From Promethearchaeota archaeon (GTDB lineage: Archaea > Asgardarchaeota > Lokiarchaeia > Sigyniarchaeales > SOKP01): DNA of 25,357 bases. Position 1 is the first letter of the stretch, and each line of letters starts with the position of its first letter. Of this stretch, positions 11,029 to 25,357 are shown in pieces. Where the stretch lies: positions 1 to 25,357 of the forward strand of contig JAHLWH010000173.1 of assembly GCA_019058015.1 (NCBI GenBank). The letters run 5' to 3'. Made by a program: the position numbers and the translations under genes. The notes beneath the pieces are model-generated. The model was not told the DNA's origin, made no database searches, and saw only the letters and a program-made list of their open reading frames with translations.

Positions 11029-11907
11029 ATGGGATCAGAAAAAAGAGAATATATAAAAATATCTAAAGAAAAATATCACATACTTGTTAATAGTATAGTA
11101 GATGTTATTGTAGAATTAGATTCAAATGGAACATTTATTTTTGTAAATTCGCGGTTTTTTGATTTTTTCGGGTATCAACGGGAGGAAATTATTGGAATGA
11201 ATGCATTCAGTTTCGTCCATCCAGAAGATTTACCAAAAATTGCAAAAAAAATGAACGATGCAATATATTCAAGAGAAACAATAGAAGTTGTATATAGATC
11301 ACGCCATAAAGATGGTCATTATATTCCAGTCCAAGCGAGAGGAGGGATGTATAACGATAATGGAAAAATTAAATTTATTGGAGTTATTAGAGACTATAGC
11401 ACACAAAAAGAAGAAGAACAAAAAATAGAAGAATCCCAAGAAAATTATATAGAATTATGTAAAATGTTAGAACAAAAAGTCTCAGAAACAACAATAGATT
11501 TTAAGGAATCAGAACAAAAATTTCATCATTTATTTGAAACTTCTCCATTTGCGATATTTCTACTAAAATTTATAGGTATAATTATAGACTGCAATTCTGT
11601 TGCTGAAAGATTATTTAAAGTTAAAAAAGATGAAATGATTGGCAGAAATTTTCTAGAACTGGCAGCATTTCCTTCAAAAGCATATACTAAGATTGAGAAT
11701 GCTTATAAAAAGTTGTGTAGAGGAGAAAAGTTAAATCCTATTGAGATTCAAATTCATACCAAAGATGATGAATTAATTTGGGTGAATGTTATAAATACTT
11801 TAGTTAAATTACACAATGAAATCCAAATTCAAGTTATAGTTCAAGATATTTCTGAGCGAAAACTAACTGAAAAGGCTCCACAACCTTCAAAGCAAGAAAT
11901 TCCGTAA
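11029..11907 (+). CDS. Tandem PAS-domain sensor protein lacking an output domain
   Basis: PAS1 is FVNSRFFDFFGYQREEIIG..FVHPED..RHKDG..IRD and PAS2 is DCNSVAERLF..MIGRNF..IWV..VQDISERK, joined by a coiled linker (LEQKVSET). An SD-like AGGTG lies upstream. Confidence 0.85.
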   Translation: MGSEKREYIKISKEKYHILVNSIVDVIVELDSNGTFIFVNSRFFDFFGYQREEIIGMNAFSFVHPEDLPKIAKKMNDAIYSRETIEVVYRSRHKDGHYIPVQARGGMYNDNGKIKFIGVIRDYSTQKEEEQKIEESQENYIELCKMLEQKVSETTIDFKESEQKFHHLFETSPFAIFLLKFIGIIIDCNSVAERLFKVKKDEMIGRNFLELAAFPSKAYTKIENAYKKLCRGEKLNPIEIQIHTKDDELIWVNVINTLVKLHNEIQIQVIVQDISERKLTEKAPQPSKQEIP

Positions 11908-12039: not shown

Positions 12040-12050
12040 AAAAAAAAAAA
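12040..12050 (-). terminator. Oligo-T (T11) archaeal-type terminator after the hgcB-like gene
   Basis: A11 on the plus strand immediately beyond the stop codon at 12051. Confidence 0.5.
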
Positions 12051-12386
12051 TTAACAACTGCAGCTATCATCATAATTAGCAATTTCAATTTTATCTTTAC
12101 TCTTCCGTTTCTGGATTACATTCCATAAACAACCACAACCTTCTATTTCTTCCATAATAATCGCTTGTTCTGGACAATTCCGCATACAAGCGCTACATTC
12201 TGTGCAAAGGTTTGGTCTTGAAATTTCATATTTATTATTATGACCTTGATGCGGAAGACCAAAGGGACATACTTCTGCACAAATACCGCAGGATGTGCAA
12301 AGTTCTGGAACAATAAAAATTTTAGTAATAACTTGAGGCTCACTGCTACATGTTTGATTTTGGTTAATATCACTCATAATTCTCAT
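12051..12386 (-). CDS. hgcB: HgcB-like 2x[4Fe-4S] ferredoxin
   Basis: CTSCGICAEVCP and CTECSACMRNCP motifs, followed by GCGC (canonical GVGC) and a terminal CSC (canonical CC). Starts 10 bp after the hgcA-like gene. Alternative start at 12377. Confidence 0.72.
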   Translation of the reverse strand: MRIMSDINQNQTCSSEPQVITKIFIVPELCTSCGICAEVCPFGLPHQGHNNKYEISRPNLCTECSACMRNCPEQAIIMEEIEGCGCLWNVIQKRKSKDKIEIANYDDSCSC

Positions 12387-12396
12387 GTTTTTTTTT

Positions 12397-14052
12397 CTAT
12401 ATTAATATTAATCCAATTGTTGATAAAATTATACCTAATATTAAAAAAGTTAAATTTAAAATTCTAAAAATAGGATATTCGTCATAGATTTCCCGAGGGC
12501 TCGTTGCCATCGTAGAACCACTAAATGACATCGTTGAAAAGAATGCTAACCAGAAAATAAAACAAATATTTAACAAGACAAATATAATTGATTGATGTAC
12601 GATCAATAATAGGAATCCTAAACATAAGACATTTATTATTCCAATCACTACACCTTTTATAACAAACTTCCGTGTAAAATTAGTTAGCGGAAATAATATC
12701 GACAATAATCCATTGGTGATAATTACACCAATCGCCAACTCTCCTACAATCCATAACATATCTAACTTGCCAAAAACCAATAAAAGAAGTGCAATTACAG
12801 CTAAAACTATTAAGAATATTTTTCGAAATAGAAAAGTTGTGTGTGAAATACCCGCTCTTAACCGGTGAGAAAACGTGAATTTTGCAAGTTTCATTTTATC
12901 TGGTTTTCTAGCTGGGTGTTCTTTCAAATACTGTGGTAAGTGCTTTGACCAAACAGGACCATATTTAATTTTATATGGAAAACTTGATGATTGTTTATGA
13001 AGAAGGGGAGCTGAGACACCACCAGCAGATAATTGTGGAAGGATTAGTGTTTTTTTATTTGAAAATTTTTGAATATTAGTTGCTTGAACAGCTTCAATAA
13101 GTTGTTCGTTTCCAAAATCTCCTCCCCGTGCAGCACACCAGACATTTATGCCACGTGAGTCTACACATAACACCCAAGCATCAATTCCCTTGAGGTCATT
13201 CATAACTCTAATATATGTATAAATATAATTTGCTGTTACAATTATTGGTGATTCATTAGTCGGATTACCCGATCTATAAATACCTGGTTCGATTGAAACA
13301 TAATCAGTTTGGCCCGTAAATAAACATCGGATTATTTGAAATTTTGCCCGAACTCCTGTGAAAGTTTTTTGTAATGGCTTATAATATCCAGGTTCATTAT
13401 TAGCATTTTCATTAATTTTTTGTAATTCAATTACTCGAATCGCTCCATGATTCCATTCCTCTTGTGCTACAATTTTAAAGCCTATTGGTTCAAGGTAATT
13501 TAAAAACCATCTTAAAATAAAAGTACCTCCAATTTTAAGCCGCCGTAATTTCTTTTTATACCACCATCGTCTAATTTTGAAAAACAATTTCCATATTCCA
13601 GAAGGGACAAATTCTGCCGCAATAATTAACCTTCCATTAGTTTTAAGAGACTTCCATGCATATCGAAGTAATAATTGTTGCTCAAATGAACGGAGTTCTG
13701 AAAGTAAGAATTTGCTTACAATAACATCTTTTGAACAATCTTCAATTTGCCAATCGCTTATGGAGCCAACTTGATATATTAACTCTCTACTCGAAATTGT
13801 AGAATAATTACGCATTGCATAATCTATCATTTTAGAATTTATATCAATAGCTAATACATTATTTCCCTTTAATGCCATCTTAGATGCAAGAGTGCCTGTT
13901 CCACAACCGACCTCTAAAATAGATTCATCAGAATTAATTCGGTCTAAAATCCAGTCTTGAACTTTAAGATTTATTCCTTTAGTAAGAGTTGTAAATTTTG
14001 AGTCATAAGTATCCGGTTCTTCCTCGAGCTTACGCATATAGACAACAGCCAT
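12397..14052 (-). CDS. hgcA: Fusion of a class I SAM-dependent methyltransferase and an HgcA-like corrinoid-binding membrane protein
   Basis: aa ~1-215 form a methyltransferase (ILEVGCGTG, LAIDINSKM, LKTNGRLIIAAEF). aa ~250-400 form a CdhD-like corrinoid domain (IEPGIYRSGNP..SPIIVTANY, DSRGINVWCAARGGDFG, LILPQLSAGGV, YGPV). aa ~410-551 hold five TM helices including MSFSGSTMATS (compare the HgcA MNFTGST segment). Confidence 0.8.
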   Translation of the reverse strand: MAVVYMRKLEEEPDTYDSKFTTLTKGINLKVQDWILDRINSDESILEVGCGTGTLASKMALKGNNVLAIDINSKMIDYAMRNYSTISSRELIYQVGSISDWQIEDCSKDVIVSKFLLSELRSFEQQLLLRYAWKSLKTNGRLIIAAEFVPSGIWKLFFKIRRWWYKKKLRRLKIGGTFILRWFLNYLEPIGFKIVAQEEWNHGAIRVIELQKINENANNEPGYYKPLQKTFTGVRAKFQIIRCLFTGQTDYVSIEPGIYRSGNPTNESPIIVTANYIYTYIRVMNDLKGIDAWVLCVDSRGINVWCAARGGDFGNEQLIEAVQATNIQKFSNKKTLILPQLSAGGVSAPLLHKQSSSFPYKIKYGPVWSKHLPQYLKEHPARKPDKMKLAKFTFSHRLRAGISHTTFLFRKIFLIVLAVIALLLLVFGKLDMLWIVGELAIGVIITNGLLSILFPLTNFTRKFVIKGVVIGIINVLCLGFLLLIVHQSIIFVLLNICFIFWLAFFSTMSFSGSTMATSPREIYDEYPIFRILNLTFLILGIILSTIGLILI

Positions 14053-14154
14053 ATTACAAACACTTATTAAAAGGGTATTTTTTTCTGATTTGATTTATTT
14101 TAAATTAGATTTAAACATTTCATTAACATAAAAATACCTTAAAAACTTCAAACT

Positions 14155-14859
14155 TCATTTTCTATATTTTTTAAGTCTTTTATTGTATTCATTTTCGATA
14201 TCATTGATAAAATTTAAGACTTTCTCATCCTCGATTTTATTGTATTCTAATGTACATTTTATCAATGCACGTAAATGTATAATTCCTGCTATTTCTTTAT
14301 CACAAGTTCGTCCAAATCTTGGCGCTCGACATTCATAACATACATTTATTGCAAAATTTTGTAATATCTCCACAGTAATTGATTTACCTCTAATAAAATT
14401 GGCTCCAGCACGTGAAGAACCACAGGGATAACTTCGAATTACCTCTAATTCGACAATTTTACCCTCCAACACATTAGATTTATAAAGGGGACGCCCAAAA
14501 TTTTTAGCATATTCGTCAATTTCTAAAATATTAGTGTTAGGCTCAATGGAACACATTGTAGGGTATGCAAATGTTCTTGAATTTAACTCTTTTGCTTGTC
14601 GCATAAAACCATCTCCAAAACTAATCCCAAGAATTGTAGGTTTTCCTAGTTCTGCGAGGGCTAAAACTTGATTAGGGTGCCTTAAATAAGAAATGTAAAG
14701 ATCACATTCAGGAATATTTAATTTATAATCATTTAAAATAATATTCGTAGGGATTTCCTCAATTTCGATCCACGTACATGGAAAAATTTTACTTATATTT
14801 TCATAAGCTCGATCTCCATACTTTCCATCTGTTAAAATGCCAATTTTTATCAATTTCAA
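14155..14859 (-). CDS. DUF166-family protein
   Basis: GKYGDRA N-terminus, HP, MCSI, FGRP, VIRSYPCGSS, CYECRA and AGIIH motifs are typical of DUF166. TTG start. Confidence 0.75.
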   Translation of the reverse strand: MKLIKIGILTDGKYGDRAYENISKIFPCTWIEIEEIPTNIILNDYKLNIPECDLYISYLRHPNQVLALAELGKPTILGISFGDGFMRQAKELNSRTFAYPTMCSIEPNTNILEIDEYAKNFGRPLYKSNVLEGKIVELEVIRSYPCGSSRAGANFIRGKSITVEILQNFAINVCYECRAPRFGRTCDKEIAGIIHLRALIKCTLEYNKIEDEKVLNFINDIENEYNKRLKKYRK

Positions 14860-14925
14860 ATTAGCTTCTTGTAAACTTAGAGTCGATTTAGAATTTATTT
14901 TTTTAAAATAAAAAAAAAATATTTT

Positions 14926-15726
14926 TTATAAGGGTTTCACAGCATGAATTTTAATACTTGAAACGGTGTTGTCAAGGTCCTCCTTTAGTTTCTTGTCTAA
15001 CTCTTGATTAAGGTATGAACTAATAGCAAAGAATGATTCTCCAACAATATTTACTTCATGAAATCCAGCTTCTTTTATAGATTCTATATACTGGTTCTTT
15101 AGAACCGCACCAGCAACACAATTAACATACGCGTCATAATTATTTTTAATGAAATCAGGTAATTCTCTTAAAAGCACTATATCTGATACCATCAATCTTC
15201 CCCCTGGCTTTAAAACCCTAAAAGCCTCCCGAAATACTCTCTCTTTTTCGGGTGAAAGATTAATCACACAGTTAGAAATAATTACATCTACTGAATTATC
15301 TGCAGCTGGTAAATTTTCAATTTCACCGAGTCTAAATTCTACATTGTCAAAATTTTCCTTCCTTGCGTTTTCTCTAGCTTTATCAATCATAGACGCTGTC
15401 ATATCTACTCCAATGACTTTTCCACTTTTACCAACCTTATTCGCTGCAAGAAAGCTATCAAAACCAGCCCCTGATCCGAGATCTAAAACATGATCTCCTT
15501 CCTTTAATGAAGCAAGAGCTACCGGATTTCCACAACCAAGACCTAGATTAGCTCCTTCAGGAACACTTTTGAGATCTTCATCCGTATATCCAATTGTCTT
15601 ACTAATATTTTTATAATAAGTATCACTACCACAGCAAGAACTGGTTGGAACACAACAACTACTTGATTGCTCCGCTATTTTTCCATAACTTTCCCTTACA
15701 ATTTTTTTAACATCTTTTTCTTCCAT
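14926..15726 (-). CDS. arsM: Arsenite S-adenosylmethionine methyltransferase
   Basis: N-terminal [52 protein letters not shown] and CVAGA. The conserved ArsM cysteines are present. Confidence 0.93.
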
Positions 15727-15780
15727 TTTTTTTCCCTTTTTTTATTTAAGTATAAATAATCAATAAAAGTATATAAAGGT

Positions 15781-15803
15781 TCCGAACATTTCGGATCCGA
15801 ACA
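15781..15803. promoter_or_regulatory. Candidate operator upstream of arsM: three TCCGAA half-sites
   Basis: TCCGAAcatTTCGGATCCGAACA contains a perfect 12-bp palindrome TTCGGATCCGAA (15790-15801) and a direct repeat TCCGAACA (15781, 15796). It is flanked by minus-strand TATA-like TTTATA elements near 15772-15777 and 15808-15813. Confidence 0.6.
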
Positions 15804-15847
15804 ATTATATAAAAATTAAATTACTCTATTCAAAATGACCAGGATTA

Positions 15848-16327
15848 TTAACATTTTTCCAATCCATTTAAATCAAACGAATTAGATAATTTATTTAACA
15901 AAGAGGTTAATTGCTCTAAATCTTTAGATGTAAACCCTTCACAACAATTCTTTAAAATGATCTTTATTGGGGGTGTTTTACTTTTTATTTCTTTTCCTTT
16001 TTCAGTAAGTTTAACAAGAAGGCTTCGTCTATCTTCAGGGTTATTTTCTCTATATACTAAATCATTTTTCTCCATAGTATCAATTATTCCTGTTATAGTT
16101 GAGGGGGAACAACAACACGCAGATGCTAAATCTTTAAATTGTTTACCGTCAGATTTCCAAAGTTCCATTAAAATAGAATATTGAGGAGGAGTAAGATTTT
16201 CACTTTTAACAACTCGACGTTGTAATTTTTCATATTTTTTATTTAAAATATTAATCAATTGAAAGATTTCAGAAAAATTTAAAGTTTCACATGTGCCATT
16301 TTCGCAATTGAAATCATGTTCCGACAT
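15848..16327 (-). CDS. Cys-rich MarR family transcriptional regulator
   Basis: LTPPQYSIL, SPSTITGIIDTMEKNDLVYR..NPEDRRSLLVKLTEKG winged-helix signature. Eight Cys, including CCC and CC. Confidence 0.92.
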   Translation of the reverse strand: MSEHDFNCENGTCETLNFSEIFQLINILNKKYEKLQRRVVKSENLTPPQYSILMELWKSDGKQFKDLASACCCSPSTITGIIDTMEKNDLVYRENNPEDRRSLLVKLTEKGKEIKSKTPPIKIILKNCCEGFTSKDLEQLTSLLNKLSNSFDLNGLEKC

Positions 16328-16701
16328 AATATTTTCACCATATAGTTAGGATTGAAATTATTTATATCCTTAATAAATAATTAGCTTTAATCCTTATTAT
16401 TCTTTTCGTTGTATATCAGTTATTTCAAAAGTATAAATAAGATAAATCCAGACTCTAAAGATTTATATGTATGAAACACATTAGAGTATTTATATGGATA
16501 GCTTTTAGATCATGATAATTCGCACGAATAATAATAAAATCTTCTTTCATTGATTAACTTGAAAAAATAAGAGGTATTCTTAAGAAGTATTAACTTTTCA
16601 AAAATCTTGACTGGTAACAAAGAAAAAAAAAATAATTTATTTAGAGGTGCGATCCTTTAATTCTACACTATAAACCAAGTCTTTATTCATATCTAACTTA
16701 A

Positions 16702-17232
16702 TTAGACTTCTTTATTCTCTTTCAATAAGAATTTGAATTTACAAATATCATCTCCACCAGGAAAGCGTTTAATAGGAATTATTTTTCCATTTACACCCAT
16801 AGCTTCCAACCATCCTCTGTGTCTAAAGTTACAGGCACATGAATATTCTAATTCACCTTTAGATTTTTTCACTTCTTCCCAAATGAAGCATTTTTTGACT
16901 ATAGCCACACCTTCATTTTCAGAATGTACAATAAATTTGAATTTCATAATTTTAGGAATAATAACATCCATGAATGTATTCATGATTTTAAAAATTTCAG
17001 GAATTGAATTAATCGTCCCCTTTTTAATTTTTAATGCATTTAAAATATATTTAGCTTCAATTTTACCCATTGAGAAAACTACTTTTTGATTTAAAAGATT
17101 AGCTTCTTGAATTCCAAACTTTCTTTTTGTTTTTAAAAACCATTGACCATCATGTCGAGCCCAGCAAATTTGAAGTAGAAATTTCTGTGTTTGTAGAGGG
17201 ATATTATATTTTTCCTTAAATAATAACTCCAT
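16702..17232 (-). CDS. DUF6125 / V4R-like protein (paralogue 3)
   Basis: WARHDGQWF, KCFIW, CAC..RHRGW and GDDICKF motifs. Confidence 0.75.
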   Translation of the reverse strand: MELLFKEKYNIPLQTQKFLLQICWARHDGQWFLKTKRKFGIQEANLLNQKVVFSMGKIEAKYILNALKIKKGTINSIPEIFKIMNTFMDVIIPKIMKFKFIVHSENEGVAIVKKCFIWEEVKKSKGELEYSCACNFRHRGWLEAMGVNGKIIPIKRFPGGDDICKFKFLLKENKEV

Positions 17233-17260
17233 AATCTCATCATCTCAATTTTAATATTAA

Positions 17261-17779
17261 TTAATTTACATTTGTTCCTTCATTGAAATAAAATCTGAAA
17301 TTTCTAAAACATACACCATTTTTATACATCATACAACCATCTATTTGTGGAGTTATGCTATATTTTATTCCTAATTCCTCGAACCATCCTTCCAATCTAT
17401 CAAATATTCCACATTTATACTGGTTTATAATACCTATACGCTTAACTCCATCATAAGCAAAACATTTATTCATAATAAAATTTAACTCATTATTCGACGG
17501 AAACTCATAAGTAAAATCCATAAACTTAGCTTTAACTACATTAAATATTTTATTAAGAAAATTTTGAAGATCTTTAAACTTCTCAATCTTGCCTATATTA
17601 AACGCTTTTTTCAATCTTTTTAATTCAATTTTAGCCATAGATTTTACCGCTGCTTTGTTTATCTTATTAGCTTTTTGGATCCCGCAATTTTTAACACTAT
17701 GGAAAAACCACATACCATCGTGAGTCATCCAATTTTTTATTAAAATTTCTTTTAATTCTTTCTTATGAAGTGACTTCAT
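17261..17779 (-). CDS. DUF6125 / V4R-like protein (paralogue 2)
   Basis: NWMTHDGMWF, KCFAY, CGIFDRLEGW and GCMM..GVCFR motifs. Confidence 0.78.
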   Translation of the reverse strand: MKSLHKKELKEILIKNWMTHDGMWFFHSVKNCGIQKANKINKAAVKSMAKIELKRLKKAFNIGKIEKFKDLQNFLNKIFNVVKAKFMDFTYEFPSNNELNFIMNKCFAYDGVKRIGIINQYKCGIFDRLEGWFEELGIKYSITPQIDGCMMYKNGVCFRNFRFYFNEGTNVN

Positions 17780-17808
17780 TTTTTCATTTACACTATTCTA
17801 TTTTCAAT

Positions 17809-18348
17809 TTATTTTTTAATTTTCCAATCTTTTACTTTAAGAACGATTTTACAGATATCATCTCCATCTTTAAGACATTTCAAGAGTTTTTCTTCAACTT
17901 TAACACCTAATGCTTTATACCAACCAGAACGCATAGCAAAACAGCCACATTCGTACTGATCTGAAACCCCAATCTTTTTAATATTTTCATAGACTCCACA
18001 TTTTTCGATGACTCCAATAAGAGATGTCTCAGACTCGCGTTCAAATTGGTAAATCATATTTGGTGGAGGATAGTAAAACAACACAGTAGCTAGGCATATT
18101 GCCTGAAGATCTTCTATATTTTTTACCTTTGGTATCCCAAGAGCATTCATTATTCTGTACATCATAACTTTCCCCATATCACTAATGATCGTTTTATTAA
18201 GTTTATTACCCATTTCCCACCCCAATTCTCGAACTATCGCCATTTGACACCTTGCGTCGTGAGACATCCAGTTTTTTCTTAGTATTTCAATTTTCTGCTC
18301 CTCTGAAATATAAGATAGAAGTCTTTTCCCTTGTTCCATAAAACTCAC
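17809..18348 (-). CDS. DUF6125 / V4R-like protein (paralogue 1)
   Basis: NWMSHDARC, KCGVY, CGCFAMRSGW and CLKDGDDIC motifs. Start at GTG 18348 or ATG 18339. Confidence 0.75.
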   Translation of the reverse strand: MSFMEQGKRLLSYISEEQKIEILRKNWMSHDARCQMAIVRELGWEMGNKLNKTIISDMGKVMMYRIMNALGIPKVKNIEDLQAICLATVLFYYPPPNMIYQFERESETSLIGVIEKCGVYENIKKIGVSDQYECGCFAMRSGWYKALGVKVEEKLLKCLKDGDDICKIVLKVKDWKIKK

Positions 18349-22058: not shown

Positions 22059-23633
22059 TTATAAAAAAGAGCTTATTGTACTAATCCAAGTATTGAATTG
22101 ATCCAAAAGTTCCAATCGGTATTCAGTAGTTATTTTAAAGAACAACAAAGAAATCATCTTTTTCTCAAGATATTCATTCAAGTTAAATTCTTCGATGAGT
22201 CGAGACCAAACTCCCGTTTGAGTATGGTCTTCGGAAGTTCTTAAGCCTATTAATACACTCGTATTTTCATTTATCTTATCTAAACCGTTAATTACTAAAT
22301 TTCTCCATTCCAAATCAATGGATTTCTTATTTCTTGCATCAAATATAAATAAAACTCCATCAGAGTCTTCAATTTCTCCAATATGATTGATATAATTTTT
22401 AATAATAACTTTATCATTAAATGAATAAATTTTTTCTAATTCTTCATTTTTAACTATACTCATTTCGCCCAAATCTCGAAATTCAGTAAACAATTGTAAA
22501 GCAGGATTCCAATATTTATTTAAACCAATAAATGTTAAAGTTAATTTACCTTTTACATCAATTATATTATTAATTTCTGAAATTAGATTTTCTTTTACGA
22601 TTCTCTCCTCTTCCAGTTGTGATTTTACTATATAGTGATAGGAGATTAAAGAGAACGCATCCTCGACATTTTCCCCTGTTTTTGCACTAGTCTCAATATA
22701 AGAAGCTTTTAGCTTATTTGCTAATGAAACACCTTCTTGATAAGATATTTTTCTTTCCTTACTTAAATCTGTTTTATTCCCCACAATAACAACCGGAATA
22801 TCTTTACTAATAAAACCTTTCAATTCATCGTACCAATTTTCAAGATTCTCAAAAGAAGATTCATTTGTTAAATCGAATACTAAAAATGCTGAATGAGCTC
22901 CTTGATAATAAGTCTTTCGAACTCTTCGGAAGAATTTTTGAGCTCCAATATCCCAGATCATTAAATTTATTGCTGTATTCAGAAATTTATAGTTATGTGT
23001 CAAAATATTTAAACCAATTGTGGCACGATAATCGGTCGAAAATCTATTTTCAACAAATCTCATTACAATTGATGTCTTACCAACCGCGTGGTCACCAACA
23101 ATAATAAATTTAAATTTATATTCTCCCCTGGCGAGTCTCATTTGATAAATTTGATTTTTCAACCTATCAAACTCTTGTCTTTCATCATATTCAAAATTAG
23201 GAATATATATTTGAATTCGATTAATATTTTCCTCTGTTAATATTTGGGCACATTTTTCAGCTAAGAAATAGGCATATGGAGCAGTTTTATCAATGGAAGC
23301 GAGTGTATTTAATATAATGCTTACAGTAGCATTATCTTTTATAGATACAAACAAAATTCTGGAATCTTCCGTTTCAAAGCTTGCAGTTCCCCATTTTTTA
23401 AAGGAAAATTCATATCTAATTCTTTCTAAAATTGGGTTTACAAGAGAAGAAAGTACCGATATTGAATCTGTTTTTTCTTCAAGAGAATTATCTAATGTTT
23501 TCTCTTTAAGAGAGTCATCTAATTTCGCAGCAATTATCAACCCTTCATCATCAGAAACAATTACCGCTTCAACATCAGGGACAACATCCATAAAATTTTT
23601 TAGCAAACTATTAAATAATTCTAATTTTGACAT
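22059..23633 (-). CDS. Roadblock/LC7 domain fused to a Rab-like small GTPase with an additional C-terminal domain
   Basis: N-terminal VPDVEAVIVSDDEGLIIA (Roadblock). G1 GDHAVGKTS, G2 YRATIG, G3 WDIGAQ, G4 GNKTD, G5 ETSAK. Likely start at ATG 23633. Confidence 0.88.
   Translation of the reverse strand: MSKLELFNSLLKNFMDVVPDVEAVIVSDDEGLIIAAKLDDSLKEKTLDNSLEEKTDSISVLSSLVNPILERIRYEFSFKKWGTASFETEDSRILFVSIKDNATVSIILNTLASIDKTAPYAYFLAEKCAQILTEENINRIQIYIPNFEYDERQEFDRLKNQIYQMRLARGEYKFKFIIVGDHAVGKTSIVMRFVENRFSTDYRATIGLNILTHNYKFLNTAINLMIWDIGAQKFFRRVRKTYYQGAHSAFLVFDLTNESSFENLENWYDELKGFISKDIPVVIVGNKTDLSKERKISYQEGVSLANKLKASYIETSAKTGENVEDAFSLISYHYIVKSQLEEERIVKENLISEINNIIDVKGKLTLTFIGLNKYWNPALQLFTEFRDLGEMSIVKNEELEKIYSFNDKVIIKNYINHIGEIEDSDGVLFIFDARNKKSIDLEWRNLVINGLDKINENTSVLIGLRTSEDHTQTGVWSRLIEEFNLNEYLEKKMISLLFFKITTEYRLELLDQFNTWISTISSFL
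23469..23522 (-). repeat. 27-bp imperfect tandem duplication inside the Roadblock domain
   Basis: tgttttttcttcaagagaattatctaa and tgttttctctttaagagagtcatctaa are 23/27 identical and encode LDNSLEEKT and LDDSLKEKT. Confidence 0.8.
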
Positions 23634-23770
23634 AAGATACTCAAAATGAAAATACAAAAAAATATTAATATATCTTTTGTATATTTTAGTGAAAATAATT
23701 AAGAAAAAAATAAATTTTTTAATCTCTAATCACTCTTATAGTGTAGAAACTTCATTTAATTTGATACAAA

Positions 23771-24364
23771 ATGCCTACTTGTATAATTTGCCATGAAAAA
23801 ATTGAAATAAAAGAGAGTTCTAGCATTAAAAGCTATACTTGTCCAAACGGACATCAAATTCATAGAAAATGTTTAGAAGATTGGTTAGTTCATTCCCAAG
23901 TTTGTCCATTATGTGCTGAAAAATATGACTCAAATACAATTTCAGAATTTATAGAATATTTTGATAAAATAAAGGACCAAAAAGAGCAAGAAAAACAGAT
24001 AAAAGTTGATATGGAACTTGAAAAAGTTATTAGTAGTATTGCGGATGATATTATTATTTTAGAAAAACTGGAACTTCCACGGAAATTAATCGAACAAAAG
24101 CAGTTTGAAAAGGCATTAGAAAAGTTATTTGATTTGATAGATGATGACGGTCAAAATGTGGATATTTTATTTCTAATAGGAAAAACGTTTTATTTAGATA
24201 AACAATATGCATTAGCCGTTAATCATTTAATAAAACTGATAAAAAAAGATTTTAAATATCCTCAAGGATTTTATTATTTAGGAAAAACTTATCAAGCATT
24301 GGGTCTGGATGACAAAGCAAAATGGGCATTTGATCGAGTTCCATCTGAAGATTCAAAGTCCTAA
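23771..24364 (+). CDS. RING-H2 finger plus TPR protein (putative E3 ubiquitin ligase)
   Basis: CIIC-x16-CPNGHQIHRKC-x10-CPLC gives a C3H2C3 pattern with the conserved Trp (CLEDWL). A coiled segment follows, then TPR-like helices (LFLIGKTFY...A; FYYLGKTYQALG..DKA). Confidence 0.82.
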   Translation: MPTCIICHEKIEIKESSSIKSYTCPNGHQIHRKCLEDWLVHSQVCPLCAEKYDSNTISEFIEYFDKIKDQKEQEKQIKVDMELEKVISSIADDIIILEKLELPRKLIEQKQFEKALEKLFDLIDDDGQNVDILFLIGKTFYLDKQYALAVNHLIKLIKKDFKYPQGFYYLGKTYQALGLDDKAKWAFDRVPSEDSKS

Positions 24365-24388: not shown

Positions 24389-25357
24389 ATGGAAAAAATA
24401 ATTTGTTTAACAATTGCAGGAACCGACCCAAGCTGTGGTGCTGGAATTCAGGCTGATATTAGAACTTTTGAAAAATTTGAAGTCTATCCTTTTTCCGTTA
24501 TTACTGCTGTTACATATCAAACAACAGATTCATTTTCGGGGTATTTTCCGATTCCAATTGACTCTTTAGAGGAACAATTAAAAATATTATTTGAAAAATA
24601 TCCTATAAAATATGCAAAAACTGGTATGATTCCAACAAAAGAATCTGTAAAAATTATCGCAGAATATTTAGATAAATATCAAGTACATTACGTTGTTGAT
24701 CCAGTAACTGTTTCTAGCGTTGGAGTGAGACTAGCAGAAGAAGGTACTGAATCAGAGCTTAAAAAAACTCTCTTCCCAAGTGCACAAATTATTACTCCTA
24801 ATCTTAAAGAAGCAGAGTATTTCTCTGGAATTAAAATTAAAACGCAAGAATTTGATGATATTGAATCAATGAGAAAAGCAGCCTTAGAAATTTTATCTAT
24901 GATGACTAATGAAAAAATTAAGCATAAATCAAAGGCAGTTGTTATTAAAGGAGGTAATCCTGAAAAAAACAAAATAGTTGACATAGCATTAATCTCTGAT
25001 TTTGAAAACAAGAAAAAAAAGCAATATTTCTTAAAATTTTTAAAAGATCAGAAACCAATTGAACAAAATGTTCATGGCACTGGATGTGTTTTTTCAGCTG
25101 CTTTAACAGCTGCATTAGCCATTAAAAAGGATTTAAAATCTGCAATCCAAAATGCAGAAGAATTTTTTGATGAGAATTTTGAAAATATCACGAAAATTAG
25201 CGATAGAGCATATATCCTTACATTGGATTATTCACCAGAAAAAAAAGCAGTTTTAAATCAAGTAAAAGAAATTTATAATTTTATTTCAAGTTCAAAAAAA
25301 TTCTCAAGATTAATTCCAGAAGTTAGAACAAATATCTCTGTATCTTTACCTAATGCA
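24389..25357 (+). CDS. thiD: Bifunctional HMP/HMP-P kinase with C-terminal ThiN domain (ThiDN), partial at window edge
   Basis: Not in the track because it has no stop in the window. MEKIICLTIAGTDPSCGAGIQAD, KTGM, VVDPV, ITPNLKEA, VIKGG and HGTGC motifs, then IPEVRTNIS marking the start of ThiN. Confidence 0.9.
   Translation, partial: MEKIICLTIAGTDPSCGAGIQADIRTFEKFEVYPFSVITAVTYQTTDSFSGYFPIPIDSLEEQLKILFEKYPIKYAKTGMIPTKESVKIIAEYLDKYQVHYVVDPVTVSSVGVRLAEEGTESELKKTLFPSAQIITPNLKEAEYFSGIKIKTQEFDDIESMRKAALEILSMMTNEKIKHKSKAVVIKGGNPEKNKIVDIALISDFENKKKKQYFLKFLKDQKPIEQNVHGTGCVFSAALTAALAIKKDLKSAIQNAEEFFDENFENITKISDRAYILTLDYSPEKKAVLNQVKEIYNFISSSKKFSRLIPEVRTNISVSLPNA

Follow-up and report, generated by a model that had tools for sequence, protein, structure and literature searches.

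The window, that is, the whole 25,357-nt contig JAHLWH010000173.1 of a Promethearchaeota archaeon (assembly GCA_019058015.1), carries on its minus strand between positions 12051 and 16327 five open reading frames (ORFs): marR, arsM, a DUF166 gene, a gene in which an S-adenosylmethionine (SAM)-dependent methyltransferase (MTase) domain is fused to an HgcA-like corrinoid protein, and an hgcB-like ferredoxin gene. Judged from their sequences, the last three genes may encode a SAM-charged, corrinoid-dependent module for the methylation of a metalloid, probably arsenic, which lies beside a MarR-ArsM unit. We hold this reading with about even confidence. Among relatives the conserved core is the MTase::HgcA-like fusion together with the HgcB-like ferredoxin, and the fusion adjoins arsenic genes in several independent ways, in the window beside ArsM itself.

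The layout agreed with the original prediction, which had been made from the sequence alone. The ORF listing returned the five co-oriented genes with gaps of 121, 66, 102 and 10 nt from marR to hgcB. The cluster was also bounded as predicted, by a long spacer upstream of marR (374 nt, 16328-16701) and by a run of 11 T residues that begins at the base right after the hgcB stop codon and is likely to be the terminator of this end. The T10 run within the spacer is likely to terminate the upstream unit and to mark the upper boundary of the locus. Co-orientation of the five genes alone is unremarkable since the DUF6125 genes upstream share their strand. Sequencing runs of two studies other than the source of the window yielded contigs with the same gene order. 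A 3980-nt contig (X5, record 9) reached from the end of the PAS gene through hgcB, the fusion and DUF166 to arsM and differed in 121 letters over 3428 nt, and a 3518-nt contig (X6, record 17) reached from the fusion through DUF166 and arsM into part of marR and differed in 236 letters. This long form is thus kept at about 93-97% identity, and the arrangement is no assembly artefact.

The fusion protein combines the methyltransferase and corrinoid parts of the proposed module. Its corrinoid-binding domain matched PF03599 (52.8 bits, cut-off 24.8, residues 241-343), and the nearest solved chain by sequence was the large (gamma) subunit of CFeSP (2h9a; fusion residues 244-379). The predicted structure (mean predicted local distance difference test score, pLDDT, 73.6; predicted template modelling score 0.68) comprised an MTase fold (residues 1-212), an alpha/beta domain (257-378) and five helices (394-550). 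Transmembrane helices were predicted at 394-426, 434-456, 463-486, 489-514 and 519-550, in agreement with hydropathy. The HgcAB model 9a0b was the best fold match, over 318 aligned columns at E 2.8e-12; SAM methyltransferases came next. In 14 aligned fusions the SAM motif G49-C-G-T-G53, D70 and the cap-helix residues N303-V-W-C306-A-A-R309-G310 were invariant. When the fusion was used as query, 1010 proteins had E <= 0.001 among 8000 candidates scored, and about 120 protein clusters among the matches listed were 59-100% identical, about 551 aa long and contained both domains. All named sources of these clusters were Asgard archaea (Promethearchaeota, Hod-, Heimdall-, Odin-, Thor-, Hermod- and Lokiarchaeota), in keeping with an Asgard origin of the window, and database entries call these proteins 'methyltransferase domain-containing protein' or UbiE-type.

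The family names given in the original prediction held for MarR, ArsM and DUF166, as the profile scores below attest, but the name HgcA has to be qualified: by its sequence the fusion is not a canonical HgcA. It scored below the cut-offs of all three relevant models, with 182.7 bits for HgcA (NF040863, cut-off 275), 180.0 for HgcAB-like (NF043039, cut-off 285) and 130.5 for CpaM (NF043040, cut-off 180; the match spans residues 3-210, and the domain is fused rather than stand-alone). Four relatives of the same family gave 159-175, 166-177 and 133-144 bits, respectively. All nine canonical HgcA proteins tested reached 374-506 bits with the HgcA model and 190-222 with the HgcAB-like model. Four Asgard HgcAB-like proteins gave 152-171 and 367-378 bits, and the two neighbouring CpaM genes tested 240-250 bits. 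A tree of 103 HgcA-type sequences, rooted on two CFeSP sequences and obtained by a quick IQ-TREE search with Shimodaira-Hasegawa-like approximate likelihood ratio test (SH-aLRT) support only, placed the fusion family (28 rows) in one clade (99) that was sister to six Thorarchaeota-type fusions (99). The 50 canonical HgcA rows formed a separate clade (99), and the HgcAB-like proteins joined fusions from Chloroflexi (92). The order of these main clades lacks resolution in this tree. Within its own clade the fusion of the window was sister to a subclade of marR/c6-type loci (86), which are described below.

The cap-helix motif separates the same groups. It read NVWCAAGK in 47 of 51 canonical HgcA rows, NVWC(A/G)ARG in all 28 rows of the fusion family of the window, NVWCAARG in the six Thorarchaeota fusions, NVWCGACG in the eight HgcAB-like proteins and NVWCAAGG in seven of eight bacterial fusions. 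The long form of the HgcA motif, which we take to be N(V/I)WCA(A/G)GK, is only partly present in the window: the short motif N(V/I)WCA(A/G) with its Cys is there, and the GK part is replaced by R309-G310. The bacterial fusions of MTase and HgcA-like domains (L040, L043, L051, L054, L062, L079, L089 and L096) come from Poribacteria, Chloroflexi/Anaerolineae and unclassified lineages, and in the six tested the MTase portion scored 212-287 bits, above the CpaM cut-off. In the HgcA tree three of these fusions emerge close to the root, so the partnership with a methyltransferase may be old.

It might be argued that the fusion and HgcB nonetheless amount to HgcAB with its own methyl loader, hence to a true mercury methylase, and that the cluster makes methylmercury. 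The short motif used as a survey criterion is present as NVWCAA, the Cys is conserved, and the five transmembrane helices, the adjacent ferredoxin with its C-terminal Cys pair and the fold match to 9a0b are all what such an enzyme would show. The large deficit in the HgcA score against nine out of nine canonical proteins, the well supported separate clade and R-G in the place of the nearly constant G-K argue against it. Moreover, no mer genes were seen in the window. We consider mercury methylation as the purpose of this cluster very improbable.

The second part of the core, the HgcB-like ferredoxin, also scored below the cut-off of its family (NF040864, 56.1 bits, cut-off 99). The alignment showed both of its CX2CX2CX3C motifs and C84, which follows the second cluster, to be invariant, while the C-terminal Cys pair varied in form: CSC (Cys-x-Cys) in the window and a vicinal CC in most relatives. 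The association of the two genes was followed through 30 unique loci of species-representative genomes and 20 metagenome loci. Here and below the denominators vary with the number of loci that had enough flank, and contexts of 68-94% identical fusion proteins are not included; a metagenome scan aimed at fusions of more than 70% identity returned loci of 52-63% identity only. An hgcB gene lay within 300 nt 3' of the fusion in 27 of 27 species-genome loci with downstream sequence (that of L024 by tblastn only) and in 14 of 17 metagenome loci; L128, L130 and L137 gave no tblastn match within 300 nt.

The neighbourhoods of these relatives tie the lineage to arsenic/metalloid genes. An ars-type gene was found in the flanks of 17 of the 30 species-genome loci, eight loci were of a marR/c6 type, one was of both types and about six of neither; the 20 metagenome loci included seven with an ars-type gene and nine of the marR/c6 type. 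The ars-type layout is arsR (divergent)-[DUF166]-acr3-fusion-hgcB-c4-c5, in which c4 and c5 are small genes that travel with ars genes with or without the fusion (e.g. L033:10023-10803 and L101:8383-9050). ACR3 lay within 400 nt upstream on the same strand in 7/27 loci (equivalog score 298.1, cut-off 282.8), an ArsR of the ArsR/SmtB type with a CVC motif within 3.5 kb upstream in 12/26, c4 in 9/26 and c5 in 7/25. In the marR-type layout, c6 (a divergent membrane protein) is followed by marR, fusion and hgcB, with c6 upstream in 7/27 loci. The more distant Thorarchaeota-type fusions had arsR directly upstream on the same strand in five of six loci. For comparison, 51 canonical hgcA loci had ArsR nearby in seven cases, Acr3 in four, ArsM in one and MarR in two, and no ars genes were seen beside eight split CpaM + HgcAB-like pairs or the bacterial fusions examined. 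These contexts suggest that the fusion branch of the HgcA family may act on arsenic-like elements and not mainly on mercury. The proposal of arsenic or another soft metal(loid) as native substrate thus gained from the ties of the lineage to ars genes. The particular coupling to arsM recurred in one relative, L033, but did not extend to the survey as a whole: ArsM was directly upstream of the fusion in 1/27 loci (L033), MarR within 600 nt upstream in 4/29, and DUF166 upstream in 3/26 and downstream in 1/25.

No Pfam or NCBIfam family matched c4 or c5. The c4 protein bears the motif DIYVPLDACACEW, often with a Cys-rich N-terminal extension, and c5 ends in PDVGC. The genome of the window has its own copies on another contig (C134:8699-8929 and 11305-11589), in a separate ars island (C134:8699-15330) made up of c5, acr3, arsR, a DGC-like gene, c4, a second arsR, several small Cys-rich and GcvH-like genes in a row, and a copy of DUF166. 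As to a classical ars operon (arsR-acr3/arsB-arsC), ArsR and an efflux pump did not occur in 12051-16327 and were both found on C134; no ArsC scored above cut-off in this genome, which is 94% complete. A second ACR3-like gene at C242:20640-21605 (257 bits, below cut-off) contains two in-frame stops and has an ArsR-like gene beside it; this is possibly a decaying second ars locus. We also considered whether the flavoprotein and the MFS transporter that recur in the marR-type subclade might be hidden ars genes (ArsH, ArsJ/K), but both are generic and the idea was dropped.

In the window the arsenic gene next to the module is arsM. Its product scored 363.1 bits with NF008823 (cut-off 263), the sole match above cut-off in the genome, and aligned to the solved ArsM 5evj with Cys residues at the GCGNP, SNCV and CVAGA positions, which we take to be those that bind As(III), and with an additional N-terminal CC...CC. 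Upstream lies a MarR-family regulator whose winged-helix domain is clearly present (PF01047, 66.8 bits, cut-off 24.6), without any NCBIfam equivalog cut-off being reached. Five Cys residues (C13, C71, C73, C128 and C129) were invariant in an alignment of nine orthologues, which would suit a thiol-based sensor of metalloid or redox state. Two candidate operators were seen. One, just 5' of marR, may be autoregulatory; its TAAGGA and CCTAA halves, about 17 nt apart, were invariant in eight of eight sequences (window, the same-genus genome G002 and six marR-type relatives). The other precedes arsM in the window and in G002, where the element is identical, and consists of the palindrome TTCGGATCCGAA and a third TTCGGA half-site followed by a TTTATATA box.

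This promoter 3' of marR is not confined to arsM. A homologous version (TT(A/C)GGA half-site, CG(A/G)AAC and TTTAWATA) follows marR in seven relatives, where the gene behind it is a micro-ORF of 26-32 aa, found in all seven marR-type loci. The tiny peptide has the pattern M.DKDK.CC...CC with at least two Cys pairs and may either bind a metalloid or act as a regulatory leader. A run of T6-T10 lies 47-64 nt past its stop codon in all seven, before the fusion. In the window arsM, with its own N-terminal CC...CC, occupies the place of the micro-ORF. The homologous promoter and the T-run in relatives indicate that a design of a MarR-controlled first cistron, a T-run and then fusion-hgcB has been conserved. 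A MarR orthologue lay directly upstream of the fusion in 4/29 species-genome and 3/13 metagenome loci.

Oligo-T runs are signals for transcription termination in archaea. On the coding strand from 16701 to 11908 there were only three runs of seven or more T residues, each 3' of a stop codon: that of the last DUF6125 gene (T10), of arsM (T10) and of hgcB (T11). In a survey of the 20 minus-strand genes of the window, runs of at least eight T residues within 60 nt past the stop codon followed seven genes, and none occurred at tight internal junctions or after marR, DUF166 or the fusion. The T10 run after arsM is likely to be an archaeal terminator or attenuator that parts marR-arsM from DUF166-fusion-hgcB, so that the simplest reading is one of two units. 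Neither the 66-nt gap before DUF166 nor the 102-nt gap before the fusion showed an operator-like palindrome.

The same T10 run lies at the edge of an insertion/deletion polymorphism. The fusion was absent from all four other genomes of the genus (completeness 100, 90, 69 and 100%). In one of these, G002, the syntenic locus contains three DUF6125 genes, marR (96.9% identity), arsM (87.5%) and then a convergent PAS gene, without DUF166, fusion and hgcB; in another, G004, arsM adjoins the PAS gene and marR is missing. A contig from a third study (X10, depth 27.7) joins positions corresponding to 11923 and 15059 of the window with 341 letters between them. This equals 133 nt of the arsM 3' end plus the 224-nt spacer of G002 minus 16 nt, hence X10 carries the same short form. 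DUF166-fusion-hgcB is therefore present or absent as a block within the genus, and the shared control design speaks, if only mildly, for a loss of the block in G002 rather than a gain in the genome of the window.

The five genes are thus probably not one fixed unit, and the 'one regulated unit' of the original prediction is not borne out: the T10 run and the short forms in G002 and X10 divide it, and the operator with its TATA box stands before arsM, with nothing similar seen before DUF166 or the fusion. That prediction had itself named lack of conserved gene order in relatives as evidence against it, and no other locus had the five-gene order. One could still imagine a single MarR-controlled operon whose products act in sequence on one arsenic pool, for example with ArsM making mono- or dimethyl species to which the HgcA-like module adds further methyl groups, or which it exports. 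Co-orientation and short gaps would suit this, as would the arsM-fusion-hgcB order of L033 with a gap of 40 nt and no T-run before the fusion, the tight linkage of arsM and DUF166 in G003, the MarR promoter before the fusion in seven relatives and the persistence of the long form in two other studies. However, G002 and the X10 population do without the three-gene block, and ArsM and the fusion do not co-vary among genomes. Taken with the T10 run and the lack of a palindrome before DUF166 or the fusion, this makes a single operon unlikely in our view, and we prefer the reading of a marR-arsM unit beside a separate corrinoid module.

DUF166 belongs to the block, and its relatives connect it with ars genes as well. 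The protein matched PF02593 (98.4 bits, cut-off 24.4) and fell short of the NCBIfam DfsP model (49.9, cut-off 200); conserved Cys residues lie at TMCS, PCGSS and VCxEC...TCDKE. Three copies exist in the genome, with 172 bits (contig C201), 109 bits (C134) and 98 bits (window). The high-scoring copy of C201 lies about 1 kb past the right end of the window; the end of C201 is 100% identical to the final 141 bases (25217-25357), so these contigs probably adjoin. Seventeen further lower-scoring copies were compared with ars-type queries. Eight were at least 50% identical to them, of which seven had ArsR, Acr3, c4 or c5 within about 6 kb and the eighth (L166) only a weak SBF-family match nearby (23% identity). 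Eight were 31-41% identical and had none of ArsR, Acr3, c4 and c5 nearby, and one locus gave no match with these queries. In a tree of 26 rows the eight copies without ars context formed one clade (96), and the 16 with an ars gene or the fusion fell outside it. An ars gene or the fusion was thus nearby in 16/16 copies of the subfamily (including L165-L172, L177 and L161) against 0/8 in the sister clade, and the ars-context label needs a single change on the tree. The copy of the window paired with that of G003 (97), its closest relative at 65% identity, which directly follows arsM without a fusion and precedes a T8 run and unrelated genes. This ars-island subfamily is a candidate new component of Asgard arsenic islands.

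Structure prediction said little about what DUF166 does. The protein had no PDB sequence match, and its model (pLDDT 86.5) had no Foldseek match at E <= 0.001. The top VIA-align Z scores (8.1-6.8), within the background of this tool, were tied among Rossmann/flavodoxin-like folds that included the B12 domain of MetH, receiver domains and NAD-binding domains. A predicted complex of DUF166 with the cytosolic part of the fusion (residues 1-395) scored 0.00 against a mark of 0.32, without control pairs. A DUF166 gene beside the fusion in G021 (L107:1190-1864) has an in-frame TGA; selenocysteine was considered, but the TGA aligns to Lys and not Cys, and a disrupted gene is more likely.

From what these protein families are known to do we infer the following scheme. 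In the first module (marR-arsM) a Cys-rich MarR-type sensor would act at the palindromic operator next to the TATA box of arsM, which would encode an ordinary SAM-dependent arsenite methyltransferase. The second, DUF166-[SAM-MTase::HgcA-like]-hgcB, would be a self-contained corrinoid methyl-transfer machine. The HgcB-like ferredoxin would reduce the corrinoid cobalt beneath the Cys-bearing cap helix, and the fused methyltransferase domain would use SAM to methylate Co(I). At the membrane domain this methyl group would then be handed to a thiophilic metal(loid) that the Cys pairs of HgcB would deliver. Because of the genomic context the native substrate would most likely be arsenic, as arsenite or methylarsenite, and DUF166 may be a Cys-rich accessory protein of Asgard ars islands. 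A wider idea, which we put forward tentatively and think doubtful, is that the HgcA superfamily natively serves to handle metalloids. The fusion and HgcB would then be a dedicated, sensor-controlled, B12-dependent and self-charging methyltransferase for arsenic or another metalloid, with mercury methylation a side activity of one branch.

Several observations weigh against an arsenic methylation module. The marR/c6 subclade, which is nearest to the window (8/30 species-genome and 9/20 metagenome loci), was without any recognised ars gene; the neighbours that recur there are a flavoprotein and an MFS transporter, both of generic type, and about six of the 30 loci showed neither context. Among 41 related genomes the fusion occurred in 22 (three as partial pieces) and ArsM (E <= 1e-40) in ten. 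Both were present in 4/41, about 5.4 being expected by chance, so they do not co-vary, and only in the genome of the window were they on one contig. With ArsM present a second arsenic methylase looks redundant. A T-run is no proof of termination, and read-through would yield one operon. The cap helix (residues 301-313) has low confidence in the model of the fusion, and the MarR cysteines could sense redox state rather than a metalloid. ArsR/SmtB regulators sense many metals, and adjacency to arsR could reflect control of the methyl cycle instead. Finally, deletion of hgcAB in Pseudodesulfovibrio mercurii ND132 caused no significant loss of As resistance in the authors' summary, while the abstract describes the mutant as more sensitive to As(V), so that the arsenic phenotype is ambiguous (10.1101/2022.10.17.512643).

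A rival reading is that fusion and HgcB have a job that does not involve metalloids, such as the SAM-dependent methylation of a cellular or membrane metabolite by way of the corrinoid. The ars and marR neighbours would then stand for regulation responsive to thiol/redox state or to S-adenosylhomocysteine (SAH), or for the dynamics of gene islands. This would fit the many loci where fusion and hgcB occur without ars genes, the CpaM + HgcAB-like pairs and bacterial fusions without ars neighbours in the loci examined, and the resemblance of the MTase domain to UbiE/UbiG-type enzymes. One ArsR-family regulator of ND132 is also reported to respond to SAH, and hgcAB is co-regulated there with the ArsR regulon with cross-response to SAH (10.1101/2022.10.17.512643). 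It fits less well with an ACR3 above its equivalog cut-off directly upstream on the same strand in 7/27 loci, with three separate associations of arsenic type (acr3/arsR; arsR in Thorarchaeota; arsM and ars-type DUF166 in the window and L033) and with the Cys-pair features that recur in HgcB, MarR, the micro-ORF and the ArsM N-terminus. We regard such a role as rather unlikely, and metalloid methylation remains the reading we prefer. The coordinates of the features are collected in Table 1.

Table 1. Features of the locus in the window and of the micro-ORFs in related loci (Lxxx, locus handle)
Feature	Position	Strand	Description
marR	15848-16327	-	159 aa, Cys-rich MarR-family regulator; PF01047
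arsM	14926-15726	-	266 aa, short form; NF008823
DUF166	14155-14859	-	234 aa, TTG start; PF02593
MTase::HgcA-like fusion gene	12397-14052	-	551 aa; class-I MTase domains + CdhD PF03599
hgcB-like	12051-12386	-	111 aa, 2[4Fe-4S] ferredoxin; NF040864, below cut-off
Class-I SAM methyltransferase domain (CpaM-like)	13417-14052	-	fusion residues 1-212
HgcA-like corrinoid-binding domain	12868-13350	-	fusion residues 235-395; PF03599
Cap-helix motif NVWCAARG	13123-13146	-	fusion residues 303-310
Five predicted transmembrane helices	12403-12873	-	fusion residues 394-550; hydropathy and structure model
TAAGGA...N...CCTAA element	16346-16372	-	just 5' of marR; candidate autoregulatory MarR operator
Candidate MarR operator	15770-15801	-	TTCGGATCCGAA + third TTCGGA half-site, then TTTATATA box, before arsM
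T10 run	16623-16632	-	70 nt past stop of last DUF6125 gene; likely terminator
T10 run	14910-14919	-	6 nt past arsM stop, at indel edge; likely terminator or attenuator
T11 run	12040-12050	-	begins right after hgcB stop; likely terminator
Micro-ORF	L020:2667-2756		26-32 aa, between marR and fusion
Micro-ORF	L024:7815-7901		26-32 aa, between marR and fusion
Micro-ORF	L025:7749-7832		26-32 aa, between marR and fusion
Micro-ORF	L032:7818-7901		26-32 aa, between marR and fusion
Micro-ORF	L129:3349-3429		26-32 aa, between marR and fusion
Micro-ORF	L131:2064-2162		26-32 aa, between marR and fusion
Micro-ORF	L133:6033-6119		26-32 aa, between marR and fusion

Elsewhere in the window, positions 16702-18348 hold the three tandem, co-oriented DUF6125 paralogues (weakly ATC-hydrolase-like) with the T10 run at their end; the paralogues are conserved in G002. 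A 532-aa protein with a Ras/Roc small-GTPase domain (22059-23657) and a RING-finger/TPR protein (23771-24364) are eukaryote-like signatures consistent with an Asgard origin. A scan of the window for sigma-70 style promoters, a model irrelevant to archaea, gave hits no commoner than in shuffled sequences.

The purpose of HgcAB and the enzyme that loads its methyl group have been open questions since its discovery (10.1101/2022.10.17.512643, PMC12484752), and the methyl donor to HgcA is still debated (PMC12484752). The Asgard fusion is a natural construct that carries a candidate methyl loader, the fused SAM methyltransferase, for an HgcA-type protein. Together with its arsenic-gene neighbours this makes both questions testable with few genes. 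If fusion and HgcB are such a dedicated, sensor-controlled methyltransferase, arsenic systems would gain new parts in the Cys-rich MarR, the micro-peptide with CC...CC and the DUF166 of ars islands. The presence/absence polymorphism within one genus offers a natural comparison for field data. There is also a consequence for surveys. The motif filter in use for HgcA, N(V/I)WCA(A/G) (PMC12484752), would accept the fusion of the window, so some 'Asgard mercury methylators' in sediment surveys may belong to a non-canonical family. A literature search, with supplements excluded and its CpaM part swamped by unrelated 'CPAM', returned no description of the MTase::HgcA-like fusion or its ars context. 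New here are a MarR-type control whose promoter is common to arsM and the fusion, the ArsM adjacency, the ars-island DUF166 subfamily and the presence/absence polymorphism within a genus.

Among known systems, canonical HgcA/HgcB (NF040863/NF040864) shares with the window the CFeSP-type corrinoid domain, the Cys-bearing cap helix, five C-terminal transmembrane helices and a neighbouring 2[4Fe-4S] ferredoxin whose second cluster is followed by a Cys and whose C-terminus carries a Cys pair. The window differs in the N-terminal SAM methyltransferase domain of about 215 aa, in NVWCAARG instead of NVWCAAGK, in scores below both cut-offs and in the clade, which is shared with Thorarchaeota fusions. 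The CpaM + HgcAB-like pair (NF043040/NF043039) is named without tested function and corresponds to the 'fused HgcAB' clade of PMC10083202; that source reports fused HgcAB in Asgard archaea and no Hg methylation by the tested fused form. The pair likewise joins a small class-I MTase, an HgcA-like corrinoid membrane protein and a ferredoxin module, and it occurs in the same Asgard order as the genome of the window. There, however, the MTase has its own gene and the ferredoxin is fused to HgcA, the reverse of the window, where it is the MTase that is fused and the ferredoxin that stands alone; the cap helix reads NVWCGACG in 8/8 against NVWCAARG, and the window protein falls below both cut-offs.

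The ArsM family (NF008823; structures 5evj and 4fs8) includes the arsM product of the window by score and by Cys at the aligned positions; the difference lies in its promoter, which is of MarR type and not of ArsR type. In ND132 the ArsR-regulated hgcAB resembles the window in having a metalloregulator upstream of an hgcA-type gene and ars genes nearby (10.1101/2022.10.17.512643, PMC10349881), and according to PMC10349881 some bacteria have ars genes near hgcAB and some a MarR upstream of hgcA. The window differs by a MarR with five invariant Cys and a different HgcA clade with a fused MTase, and relatives of its fusion have ACR3 co-directional and directly upstream.

The DUF166 protein MMP_RS05055 of Methanococcus maripaludis belongs to the same Pfam family. 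It is reported to show cofitness with CODH/ACS (r 0.94-0.99), and its knockout was unable to fix CO2 and could be complemented (10.1101/2024.03.05.583561). As CODH/ACS contains a corrinoid protein homologous to the HgcA domain, a corrinoid-servicing role for DUF166 is possible. The copy in the window belongs to the lower-scoring subfamily (98 bits), whose copies all had ars genes or the fusion nearby. The arsM-DUF166 pair of G003 and eight ars-island copies without the fusion weaken the idea that it serves the corrinoid protein alone; these ars-only contexts argue against a tie of the subfamily to the fusion alone.

The closest chemical precedent comes from methanogens, where MtaA with methylcobalamin methylates arsenic in a side reaction (Thomas et al. 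2011, per PMC13262295). As in the scheme proposed here, a corrinoid-bound methyl group is transferred to arsenic in an anaerobic archaeon. According to PMC13262295 that reaction is incidental and unregulated, whereas the window would encode a dedicated module with a regulator and a linkage to ars genes.

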